This document shows, in pieces, positions 14,876 to 54,100 of a DNA stretch of 64,000 nt. The position numbers and the translations under genes are program-made. Under the pieces are notes generated by a model. That model made no database searches, was not told where the DNA came from, and saw nothing but the letters and a program-made list of their open reading frames with translations. The stretch lies in the NCBI RefSeq assembly GCF_054482595.1, contig NZ_CM137008.1, one strand, 5' to 3'. The first letter of the stretch is position 1. Each line of letters starts with the position of its first letter.

Positions 14876-15967
14876 ATGCGTTTTCTGCGCCGACCAATAT
14901 CGCTGCGCCAACGGCTGATATTGACCATCGGGGCCATTTTGTTGGTGTTTGAGCTGATCAGCGTCTTCTGGCTATGGCATGAAAGTACCGAGCAGATTCA
15001 GCTGTTTGAGCAGGCGCTACGCGACAATCGCAACAACGATCGCCACATCATGCGTGAGATCCGCGAGGCGGTCGCCAGCCTGATTGTCCCCGGCGTCTTT
15101 ATGGTCAGCCTGACGCTATTTATCTGCTATCAGGCGGTACGCCGCATCACCCGCCCGCTGGCGGAGCTGCAAAAAGAGCTGGAAGCGCGCACCGCCGACA
15201 ACTTAACGCCCATTGCCATTCACAGCGCCACCCTCGAAATCGAAGCGGTGGTTTCGGCGTTAAACGATCTGGTCAGTCGCCTGACCAGCACGCTGGATAA
15301 CGAAAGGTTGTTTACCGCTGACGTCGCGCACGAACTGCGAACGCCACTGGCGGGGGTACGTTTGCATCTGGAACTGCTGGCGAAAACGCATCACATTGAT
15401 GTAGCACCGTTAGTGGCACGGCTTGATCAGATGATGGAGAGCGTCTCCCAGCTGCTGCAACTGGCGCGTGCCGGACAGTCATTTTCTTCCGGTAATTATC
15501 AACATGTAAAACTGCTGGAAGATGTCATTCTCCCCTCGTATGACGAACTCAGTACCATGCTCGACCAGCGACAGCAAACCCTGCTATTGCCAGAGAGCAC
15601 CGCCGACATCACCGTTCAGGGTGATGCAACCCTGCTGCGGATGTTATTGCGAAACCTGGTAGAAAACGCCCATCGTTACAGCCCGCAAGGCAGCAACATT
15701 ATGATTAAGCTGCAAGAAGATGGCGGAGCGGTCATGGCAGTTGAAGATGAAGGACCAGGTATTGATGAGAGTAAATGCGGGGAGTTGAGTAAAGCGTTTG
15801 TACGTATGGACAGCCGTTATGGCGGGATTGGTCTGGGGTTAAGTATTGTCAGCCGCATTACACAGTTGCATCACGGGCAGTTTTTCCTGCAAAACCGGCA
15901 AGAGACTTCTGGCACGCGCGCCTGGATACGGCTGAAGAAAGATCAGTACGTGGCAAACCAGATATAA
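14876..15967 (+). CDS. basS: sensor histidine kinase BasS (PmrB)
   Basis: ~363 aa from ATG at 14876; H-box (ADVAHELRTPL) and HATPase motifs; the track ORF begins at a TTG 3 codons upstream. Confidence 0.9.
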   Translation: MRFLRRPISLRQRLILTIGAILLVFELISVFWLWHESTEQIQLFEQALRDNRNNDRHIMREIREAVASLIVPGVFMVSLTLFICYQAVRRITRPLAELQKELEARTADNLTPIAIHSATLEIEAVVSALNDLVSRLTSTLDNERLFTADVAHELRTPLAGVRLHLELLAKTHHIDVAPLVARLDQMMESVSQLLQLARAGQSFSSGNYQHVKLLEDVILPSYDELSTMLDQRQQTLLLPESTADITVQGDATLLRMLLRNLVENAHRYSPQGSNIMIKLQEDGGAVMAVEDEGPGIDESKCGELSKAFVRMDSRYGGIGLGLSIVSRITQLHHGQFFLQNRQETSGTRAWIRLKKDQYVANQI

Positions 15968-16032
15968 AGAAAGCTGCTGACCACCAGCACGCTGAACACG
16001 GTAGTTAAACTTTCATAAACACGGTTTTTCAT
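15943..16032 (-). CDS. pmrR: small membrane peptide PmrR (29 aa)
   Basis: Reverse strand translates exactly to MKNRVYESLTTVFSVLVVSSFLYIWFATY*; overlaps the last 25 nt of basS on the opposite strand; not in the supplied ORF track. Confidence 0.8.
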   Translation of the reverse strand: MKNRVYESLTTVFSVLVVSSFLYIWFATY

Positions 16033-16146
16033 TGCACTCTCCTCCGTTAACCTGGAGGAGAGTATGCGCGGCAGAGATTAAGTGAACCTTAAGAGTTCAA
16101 TTGTTGGTCTGATAAGACAGCGTCACATCAGGCCATCCGTTTCAGC

Positions 16147-21753: not shown

Positions 21754-21771
21754 TTGTATTGTGATCGGTAA

Positions 21772-22247
<476 letters not shown>

Positions 22248-24720: not shown

Positions 24721-24808
24721 TAGGTCGGATAAGACGCCCCGGCGTCGCATCCGACAATGTGCAGGCGTTGATGCCGGATGCGGTGCAAGCACCTTATCCG
24801 GCCTACAG
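24721..24808. repeat. REP element pair between phnD and phnE
   Basis: ggtcggataagacgccccggcgtcgcatccgaca ... gatgccggatgcggtg...ccttatccggcctaca. Confidence 0.8.
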
Positions 24809-50707: not shown

Positions 50708-50715
50708 AATGTCTG

Positions 50716-50750
50716 CCGCGTGATGGCTGTCACGCGGTATTTCGTTTCGT
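50716..50750 (+). terminator. rho-independent terminator downstream of mdtP
   Basis: ccgcgtga / tcacgcgg stem with loop tggctg, followed by tatttcgtttcgt. Confidence 0.7.
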
Positions 50751-50837
50751 CACGTCAAAACTGACGACAGCCTGTTTTTCGTCAGAGTTTTGAATAAATA
50801 GTGCCCGTAATATCAGGGAATGACCCCAAATAAAATG

Positions 50838-50853
50838 TGGCATAAAAGATGCA
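50838..50853 (+). promoter_or_regulatory. sigma54 (-24/-12) promoter of fdhF
   Basis: TGGCAT-N5-ATGCA with GG-to-GC spacing of 12 nt, about 50 bp upstream of the fdhF ATG; fdhF is an established sigma54/FhlA-dependent gene. Confidence 0.8.
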
Positions 50854-50904: not shown

Positions 50905-53052
50905 ATGAAAAAAGTCGTCACGGTTTGCCCCTATTGCGCATCAGGTTGCAAAATCAACCTGGTCGTCGATAACGGCAAAATCGTCCGGGCGGAGGCAGCG
51001 CAGGGGAAAACCAACCAGGGTACCCTGTGTCTGAAGGGTTATTATGGCTGGGATTTCATTAACGATACCCAGATCCTGACCCCGCGCCTGAAAACCCCCA
51101 TGATCCGTCGCCAGCGTGGCGGCAAACTCGAACCTGTTTCCTGGGATGAGGCACTGAATTACGTTGCCGAGCGCCTGAGCGCCATCAAAGAGAAGTACGG
51201 TCCGGATGCCATCCAGACGACCGGCTCCTCGCGTGGTACGGGTAACGAAACCAACTATGTAATGCAAAAATTTGCGCGCGCCGTTATTGGTACCAATAAC
51301 GTTGACTGCTGCGCTCGTGTCTGACACGGCCCATCGGTTGCAGGTCTGCACCAATCGGTCGGTAATGGCGCAATGAGCAATGCTATTAACGAAATTGATA
51401 ATACCGATTTAGTGTTCGTTTTCGGGTACAACCCGGCGGATTCCCACCCAATCGTGGCGAATCACGTAATTAACGCTAAACGTAACGGGGCGAAAATTAT
51501 CGTCTGCGATCCGCGCAAAATTGAAACCGCGCGCATTGCTGACATGCACATTGCACTGAAAAACGGCTCGAACATCGCGCTGTTGAATGCGATGGGCCAT
51601 GTCATTATTGAAGAAAATCTGTACGACAAAGCGTTCGTCGCTTCACGTACAGAAGGCTTTGAAGAGTATCGTAAAATCGTTGAAGGCTACACGCCGGAGT
51701 CGGTTGAAGATATCACCGGCGTCAGCGCCAGCGAGATTCGTCAGGCGGCACGGATGTATGCCCAGGCGAAAAGCGCCGCCATCCTGTGGGGCATGGGTGT
51801 AACCCAGTTCTACCAGGGCGTGGAAACCGTGCGTTCTCTGACCAGCCTCGCGATGCTGACCGGTAACCTCGGTAAGCCGCATGCGGGTGTAAACCCGGTT
51901 CGTGGTCAGAACAACGTGCAGGGTGCCTGCGATATGGGCGCGCTGCCGGATACGTATCCGGGATACCAGTACGTGAAAGATCCGGCTAACCGCGAGAAAT
52001 TCGCCAAAGCCTGGGGTGTGGAAAGCCTGCCAGCGCATACCGGCTATCGCATCAGCGAGCTGCCGCACCGCGCAGCGCATGGCGAAGTGCGTGCCGCGTA
52101 CATTATGGGCGAAGATCCGCTGCAAACTGACGCGGAGCTGTCGGCAGTACGTAAAGCCTTTGAAGATCTGGAACTGGTTATCGTTCAGGACATCTTTATG
52201 ACCAAAACCGCGTCGGCGGCGGATGTTATTTTACCGTCAACGTCGTGGGGCGAGCATGAAGGCGTGTTTACTGCGGCTGACCGTGGCTTCCAGCGTTTCT
52301 TCAAAGCAGTTGAACCGAAATGGGATCTGAAAACGGACTGGCAAATCATCAGTGAAATCGCCACCCGTATGGGTTATCCGATGCACTACAACAACACCCA
52401 GGAGATCTGGGATGAGTTGCGTCATCTGTGCCCGGATTTCTACGGTGCGACTTACGAGAAAATGGGCGAACTGGGCTTCATTCAGTGGCCTTGCCGCGAT
52501 ACTTCAGATGCCGATCAGGGGACTTCTTATCTGTTTAAAGAGAAGTTTGATACCCCGAACGGTCTGGCGCAGTTCTTCACCTGCGACTGGGTAGCGCCAA
52601 TCGACAAACTCACCGACGAGTACCCGATGGTACTGTCAACGGTGCGTGAAGTTGGTCACTACTCTTGCCGTTCGATGACCGGTAACTGTGCGGCACTGGC
52701 GGCGCTGGCGGATGAACCTGGCTACGCACAAATCAATACCGAAGACGCCAAACGTCTGGGTATTGAAGATGAGGCATTGGTTTGGGTGCACTCGCGTAAA
52801 GGCAAAATTATCACCCGTGCGCAGGTCAGCGATCGTCCGAACAAAGGGGCGATTTACATGACCTACCAGTGGTGGATTGGTGCCTGTAACGAGCTGGTTA
52901 CCGAAAACTTAAGCCCGATTACGAAAACGCCGGAATACAAATACTGCGCCGTGCGCGTCGAGCCGATCGCCGATCAGCGCGCCGCCGAGCAGTACGTGAT
53001 TGACGAGTACAACAAGTTGAAAACTCGCCTGCGCGAAGCGGCACTGGCGTAA
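50905..53052 (+). CDS. fdhF: formate dehydrogenase H (selenocysteine-containing molybdoenzyme)
   Basis: Track ORFs 50905..51324 and 51373..53052 are in the same frame, separated only by TGA at 51322-51324; reading through gives 715 aa with ...NNVDCCARV-U-HGPSVAGLHQSVGNGAMSNAINE... Confidence 0.93.
51322..51370 (+). other. fdhF: UGA selenocysteine codon plus downstream SECIS hairpin
   Basis: In-frame TGA at 51322-51324 followed immediately by a stem-loop-forming segment (ggttgcag gtct ctgcacc core). Confidence 0.85.
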
Positions 53053-53066
53053 TACAGTCCTTTCTA

Positions 53067-53093
53067 CAGCCTCCTTTCGGAGGCTGTTTTTTT
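53067..53093 (+). terminator. rho-independent terminator downstream of fdhF
   Basis: cagcctcc tttc ggaggctg followed by a 7-T run. Confidence 0.85.
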
Positions 53094-53837: not shown

Positions 53838-54100
53838 TAGGCCTGATAAGACGCGTTAAGCGTCGCATCAGGCGTTGATGTCGGATGCGGCGTAAACGCC
53901 TTATCCGACCTACAAAATCACGCTAAATCAGGCTATTGCGCTGTCTGGCGTAGGCCTGATAAGACGCGGCAAGCGTCGCATCAGGCGTTGATGTCGGATG
54001 CGGCGTAAACGCCTTATCCGACCTACAAAATCACGCTAAATCAGGCTATTGCGCTGTCTGGCGTAGGCCTGATAAGACGCACCAGCGTCGCATCAGGCAT
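53838..54100. repeat. BIME/REP array, ~2.3 units of ~112-115 bp
   Basis: ggcctgataagacgcg...cgtcgcatcaggcg...gatgtcggatgcggcgtaaacgccttatccgacctacaaa units starting at about 53838, 53953 and 54065. Confidence 0.9.

Follow-up and report, generated by a model that had tools for sequence, protein, structure and literature searches.

The in-frame TGA that interrupts fdhF in the 64-kb stretch of DNA analysed here (the window) is almost certainly the selenocysteine-recoding site of the E. coli gene, served by a SECIS element and read through to yield one 715-residue formate dehydrogenase H (FDH-H), the subunit that oxidises formate in the formate hydrogenlyase complex. Support for this selenocysteine reading comes from the anatomy of the sequence, identity of the product to a solved protein, a match to the SECIS_2 model, constraint acting at the RNA level, conservation of both the TGA and the frame among orthologues, and the presence of sel genes in the species. 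No observation speaks against it. The pairing of TGA140 with a downstream hairpin is a textbook case, long known, and nothing in the window is novel; UGA140 of fdhF is the case on which the study of selenocysteine recoding in bacteria was founded, and no new biology is claimed for it. The locus instead serves as a handy positive control, in that a naive test of hairpin stability fails on it and a covariance model and a synonymous-site test both detect the element.

The fdhF reading frame and its product

A mechanical list of open reading frames divides the gene into two plus-strand pieces, each with an ATG start, at 50905..51324 (139 aa) and 51373..53052 (559 aa). The first-pass annotation of this DNA held that the two share one frame and are interrupted only by the TGA at 51322-51324, and translation of 50905-53052 in a single frame agrees: it gives 716 codons, the last of which is the true stop (TAA, 53050-53052), and the TGA is the sole internal stop. 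By position this is codon 140, (51322-50905)/3+1 = 140, and the surrounding peptide reads NNVDCCARV*HGPSVAGLHQ. The gene and its recoded codon are as follows.

50905..53052, plus strand: fdhF CDS, formate dehydrogenase H; 715 codons plus TAA, with an in-frame TGA at codon 140
51322..51324, plus strand: UGA codon 140, read as selenocysteine (Sec140) on the evidence of the PDB 'X' and of orthologues; the sole in-frame stop

The same early reading had named the gene fdhF and placed selenocysteine at U140 of FDH-H, and three lines of identification bear it out. Once the stop is replaced, the product matches, at 100% identity over residues 1-715, the FDH-H chains of PDB entries 1AA6, 1FDI, 1FDO, 2IV2 and 7Z0T, in which residue 140 is the non-standard 'X'. 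The NCBIfam equivalog TIGR01591 (formate dehydrogenase subunit alpha) recognises it at 1095.7 bits, well over the cutoff of 666.25, and the FDH-N alpha model TIGR01553 scores 249 bits, below its own cutoff of 814. RefSeq, finally, gives 50905..53052 the gene name fdhF. Three Pfam domains follow one another along the protein, Fe4S4 (PF04879, residues 1-54), Molybdopterin (PF00384, 61-487) and Molydop_binding (PF01568, 576-682), the second of them as a single stretch that crosses codon 140. The features by which FDH-H is recognised are thus all present, namely the equivalog match, the domain order and a Sec or Cys at residue 140 within the motif CCARV-U-HGPS. We take Sec140 to be the molybdenum ligand of the enzyme.

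The surrounding DNA is shared with other E. coli. Numerous E. coli chromosomes carry the segment 50700-53200 at 100% identity, and of the 5426 complete E. coli genomes 5418 contain it; the initial 25 kb of the window likewise match several of these genomes at 100% identity. Gene order around the locus is mdtO-mdtP-fdhF-yjcO-gltP-nrfG. Set beside the UGA140/SECIS system of E. coli K-12, the window holds the same 715-residue protein, the same type of SECIS and the same mdtO-mdtP-fdhF-yjcO-gltP neighbourhood, and nothing of substance differs.

Could the TGA nevertheless be a real stop, separating a 139-aa Fe4S4-domain protein from a 559-aa molybdopterin protein that starts at ATG 51373? Mechanical ORF calling yields exactly these two ORFs, both fragments have been deposited as separate public proteins, and some ribosomes do terminate at UGA140 (PMC4513850). 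The crystal and cryo-EM chains refute the proposal, however, as they comprise residues 1-715 in a single polypeptide. A genuine stop at this point would cut the Pfam Molybdopterin domain in two, and the 48 nt that lie between the TGA and ATG 51373 encode conserved residues (HGPSVAGLHQSVGNGA, dN = 0). Moreover, none of the 76 complete orthologues departs from this frame and spacing, and one orthologue with a Cys codon in place of the TGA is read straight through. We regard two separate proteins as extremely unlikely, and a single FDH-H polypeptide as the product of this gene.

The SECIS element

The hairpin noticed directly after the TGA was proposed at the outset to be a bacterial SECIS, and the covariance-model search and the presence of the SelB determinants confirm it as one. 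Rfam SECIS_2 (RF01988) matches 51317-51371 on the plus strand with 87.1 bits (gathering score 70; E = 8.5e-19), the match is full-length (model positions 1-55 of 55), and it is the sole SECIS match at the gathering threshold in an Rfam scan of the whole 64-kb window. The parts of the element are these.

51317..51371, plus strand: bacterial SECIS, full SECIS_2 span (RF01988 match), with a 5-bp basal helix bracketing the UGA
51325..51335, plus strand: spacer CACGGCCCAUC, 11 nt, from the UGA to the upper stem-loop; it makes up the 5' strand of the lower stem
51336..51352, plus strand: minimal SelB-binding upper stem-loop GGUUGCAGGUCUGCACC, 17 nt, +15..+31 counting the U of UGA as +1

Bacterial SECIS elements are characterised by an upper stem-loop of 17 nt (+15 to +31), 11 nt past the UGA, whose contacts with SelB are a bulged U17 and the bases G23 and U24 of the apical loop (PMC8659212). 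In the fdhF element every one of these properties is found: the hairpin lies within the ORF, the spacing is 11 nt, and within GGUUGCAGGUCUGCACC the SelB-contact bases U17, G23 and U24 fall at 51338, 51344 and 51345, respectively. The apical loop is GGUC (51343-51346), and in the minimum free energy (MFE) fold either U17 or U18 can form the bulge. Only 2 of the 55 positions depart from the Rfam consensus, both in a wobble-compatible manner. Two positions also distinguish the window 55-mer (GUG...AAU) from that of the GTDB species representative of E. coli (GCG...AAC), one of which turns a basal-helix C-G pair into U-G and the other of which is unpaired.

The other selenoprotein genes of E. coli, fdnG and fdoG, likewise encode molybdopterin formate dehydrogenase alpha subunits, and their SECIS_3-like elements resemble that of fdhF in mechanism, with the in-frame UGA and, behind it, a hairpin bound by SelB both inside the CDS. 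The fdhF element differs from them in scoring only 35.8 bits against SECIS_3 (gathering score 63), and the window element is therefore assigned to the fdhF type. That 35.8-bit match was rejected as a separate SECIS_3 element, being the SECIS_2 element viewed through a related model. Two further Rfam matches in or near fdhF, to ZMP-ZTP (20.2 bits) and Atu_Ti3 (18.8 bits), fall far under their gathering scores of 39 and 50 and were set aside as chance. The minus-strand ORFs that cover the site (e.g. 50941..51354, 137 aa) were likewise dismissed as mechanical; RefSeq annotates nothing there, and neither the local nor the whole-window Rfam scan matched an RNA family on the minus strand at these antisense ORFs.

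With eukaryotic and archaeal SECIS elements, too, it is an mRNA structure that causes UGA to be recoded as selenocysteine. Those elements, which lie in the 3'-UTR, depend on SBP2/eEFSec. Their core is a kink-turn, and they are placed in untranslated regions at a long distance from the UGA (PMC8659212). The fdhF element, in contrast, lies within the ORF, directly 3' of the UGA, with a strict 11-nt spacing.

Folding of 51322-51370, the 49-nt span on which the first-pass annotation had centred the hairpin, does produce one (MFE -14.9 kcal/mol), although the element itself runs slightly wider, from 51317 to 51371. Over this full 55-nt span the MFE is -19.7 kcal/mol and the fold is identical to the Rfam SECIS_2 consensus structure. 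Neither value stands out. Relative to dinucleotide shuffles, the 49-nt span has a z of -0.49, its stability being equalled or exceeded by 54 of the 200 shuffled sequences, and among the 2094 windows of the same size within fdhF the 55-nt span takes 173rd place. Hairpin stability was consequently rejected as a discriminator, and since it is not distinctive here, the lack of a stable hairpin would be a poor ground on which to refute the element. What rises above chance in the SECIS signal is the match of sequence and structure together with conservation, not thermodynamic stability.

Base pairing among orthologues is in keeping with the same structure. Across the 27 distinct orthologue 55-mers, 95.9% of the cells in the Rfam structure hold standard pairs; with slid partners the figure never exceeds 46.8%. 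Every single-sided change in a stem is GC to GU or UA to UG, so that pairing is kept. These counts are consistent with the structure and are not independent of it, the Rfam model having been derived from these same sequences. Compensatory covariation among the 27 variants (96% identity per column) amounts to one double change, a score that 77 of 500 shuffles reach; it falls short of significance because the orthologue SECIS sequences are too conserved. Of the predicted pairs in the lower stem, A3-U42 and A12-U34 lack conservation among the variants. Their loss fits the statement that the lower region of the SECIS tolerates mispairing (PMC8659212).

How the element would act can be sketched largely from the literature. 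With UGA140 in the ribosomal A site, the mRNA directly downstream would be folded as the SECIS hairpin, the upper stem-loop of which would be bound by the C-terminal domain of SelB carrying GTP and Sec-tRNA(Sec) (selC). The SelB tether would in this way bring Sec-tRNA(Sec) to UGA140, in competition with RF2. Selenocysteine would then be inserted at position 140 and translation would run on to 53050-53052 to give 715 residues; ribosomes that fail to recode would terminate and leave a 139-residue fragment. Kotini et al. employed this very stretch of the gene as a reporter fragment, namely fdhF codons 130-179 with UGA140 and the SECIS at codons 141-153 (PMC4513850). Recoding was found to need both the SECIS and selenium, and to reach 30-40% in vivo and ~40% in vitro (PMC4513850).

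The window itself contains no sel gene and no tRNA gene. Searches of the 5426 complete E. coli genomes with K-12 sequences as queries recovered selAB (selB plus selA) in 5425, selC in 5424 and selD in 5425. Given that these genes are near-universal in E. coli and that 25 kb of the window are identical to several such genomes, selABCD are very likely to be present in the source genome as well.

Orthologues and selection around codon 140

A scan seeded with the protein, in which each species was represented by one genome, gathered 80 orthologous loci, all from Enterobacterales and with 80-100% protein identity. An alignment at codon 140, looking for Sec or Cys at this position, had been proposed as a check, and its outcome favours recoding: the codon is TGA in 79 of the 80 loci and TGT (Cys) in one, and none shows a gene break. 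All 76 complete copies with TGA have an ATG start, 715 codons, one internal stop (codon 140) and no indels.

Pseudogenes are usually recognised by an in-frame stop, and one might suppose that fdhF has been inactivated by a nonsense mutation, or that the TGA is a sequencing error. The same TGA, however, recurs in 79 species-level orthologues and the region is present in 5418 of the complete E. coli genomes, RefSeq raises no pseudogene flag, and purifying selection is as strong downstream of the TGA as upstream of it (median dN/dS against the window sequence, 0.046 for codons 141-715 and 0.040 for codons 1-139). The similar selection on either side excludes a pseudogene and disfavours two genes. 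We accord decay or error next to no probability, and retain the reading of an intact, recoded gene.

A third proposal would accept read-through and do without the SECIS: a near-cognate Trp or Cys tRNA, or a frameshift, would carry ribosomes past the TGA, and the hairpin would be incidental to the encoded peptide. It draws some support from the finding that the hairpin is no more stable than shuffled sequence, and from the conservation of the peptide SVAGLH, which leads one to expect some conservation of nucleotides. Since both ORFs share a frame, however, a frameshift is unneeded, and in the reporter experiments read-through required the SECIS and selenium (PMC4513850).

The synonymous sites provide further evidence against it. 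All 17 nt of GGUUGCAGGUCUGCACC are invariant in the 80 orthologues. The synonymous-site test took in 78 distinct CDSs with a median nucleotide identity of 84.6%, and across fdhF only 15 of 682 degenerate codon columns (2.2%) are invariant at the nucleotide level. Six of these invariant columns are consecutive, codons 144-149 (TCG GTT GCA GGT CTG CAC), and correspond to the upper stem-loop; this is the longest such run in the gene, the next longest being 2, and a run of 6 was reached in 0 of 100,000 permutations. With windows of any size between 6 and 16 codons, synonymous entropy is at its minimum for the gene in those that begin at codons 140-144, and dS over codons 141-155 is 0.177, compared with 0.77 and 1.0 in the flanks. 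Because the synonymous sites of codons 144-149 are frozen, a constraint must act on the RNA, beyond that on the peptide; constraint on the protein is insufficient to hold fixed codons that are 2- to 6-fold degenerate in all 78 CDSs. SECIS-independent read-through thus appears vanishingly improbable, and SECIS-directed insertion of selenocysteine is the reading we adopt.

Among the Enterobacteriaceae, several genomes carry two fdhF paralogues. Such pairs were observed in Klebsiella michiganensis (loci L015 and L069), Raoultella ornithinolytica (L040 and L045) and MGYG-HGUT-00110 (L072 and L073); the copies share ~85-95% protein identity with the query, and TGA140 and the same apical hairpin are present in both members of each pair.

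The single locus with Cys at position 140 (L066) comes from a metagenome-assembled genome of an uncultured Enterobacteriaceae member (SRR11267054_bin.5, CALYPF010000061.1). Codon 140 is TGT there, at L066:1918-1920, and the ORF is uninterrupted, yet SECIS_2 still matches in full length at L066:1913-1967, with 71.9 bits against a gathering score of 70, and the apical 17-mer is unchanged. The same assembly also holds an fdhF copy with TGA (L077). The TGT could be a recent switch from Sec to Cys or a base-call error. It is also conceivable, and in our judgement very unlikely, that the hairpin has been retained for a role independent of selenocysteine, e.g. in translational pausing or regulation; if that were true, L066 being neither a base-call error nor a very recent switch, a function of the hairpin beyond Sec insertion would be suggested.

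Annotation of fdhF and elements in its neighbourhood

The proper annotation of fdhF is one CDS of 715 codons with a translation exception at codon 140. It had been predicted that automated annotation would miscall the gene as a pseudogene or as two genes, and this proved true of some pipelines and not of others. RefSeq/PGAP presents a single uninterrupted fdhF CDS of 2148 nt with no pseudogene or join flag. In a public protein collection, on the other hand, the exact 139-aa and 559-aa fragments are each called as a protein of their own on no fewer than 1000 contigs, which indicates that many pipelines do split fdhF. The corresponding clusters number 2374 members for the 139-aa fragment and 11377 for the 559-aa fragment, and include entries from GenBank and UniRef under the name formate dehydrogenase H. 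The split fragments are a sizeable and systematic annotation artefact due to Sec codons; with thousands of such FdhF 'proteins' in public collections, they swell fragment clusters and may mislead counts of domains and pseudogenes.

On either side of the gene lie elements that resemble transcription signals.

50714-50739: terminator-like hairpin after mdtP
50838..50853, plus strand: sigma-54-type -24/-12 element TGGCATAAAAGATGCA upstream of fdhF, with one mismatch to the consensus pattern
53066..53087, plus strand: intrinsic-terminator-like hairpin, 14 nt past the fdhF stop; a 9-bp stem with 6 GC pairs, then TTTTTTT

The sigma-54 consensus is not enriched across the window (61 matches, compared with 80.7 expected from shuffles). 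As this is below the shuffle expectation, the pattern alone is no evidence, and it gains weight only from its conserved position upstream of the orthologues: TGGCA-N7-TGCA is found in front of 66 of 79, at 54-69 nt before the ATG. TGGCATAAAAGATGCA is presumably the fdhF promoter, under sigma-54/FhlA-dependent control. Repeats of the hexamers TCGTCA/TGACGA lie upstream of the gene at ~50748-50792, and these hexamers, the -24/-12 element and the terminator-like hairpins are together consistent with the known sigma-54/FhlA-dependent control of fdhF.

Other RNA families were observed elsewhere in the window. Rfam naRNA4 (RF02564, a REP/BIME-type nucleoid-associated RNA) has eight matches above its gathering score, located at 21771-22247 (+), 24723-24803 (-) and 53840-54023 (-); five of them form a tandem array at 21771-22247, repeating every 100 nt, and two others follow closely downstream of yjcO, in the vicinity of fdhF. 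The enterobacterial sRNA STnc630 (RF02052) is matched in full length at 15936-16101 on the minus strand, with 177.1 bits against a gathering score of 55.
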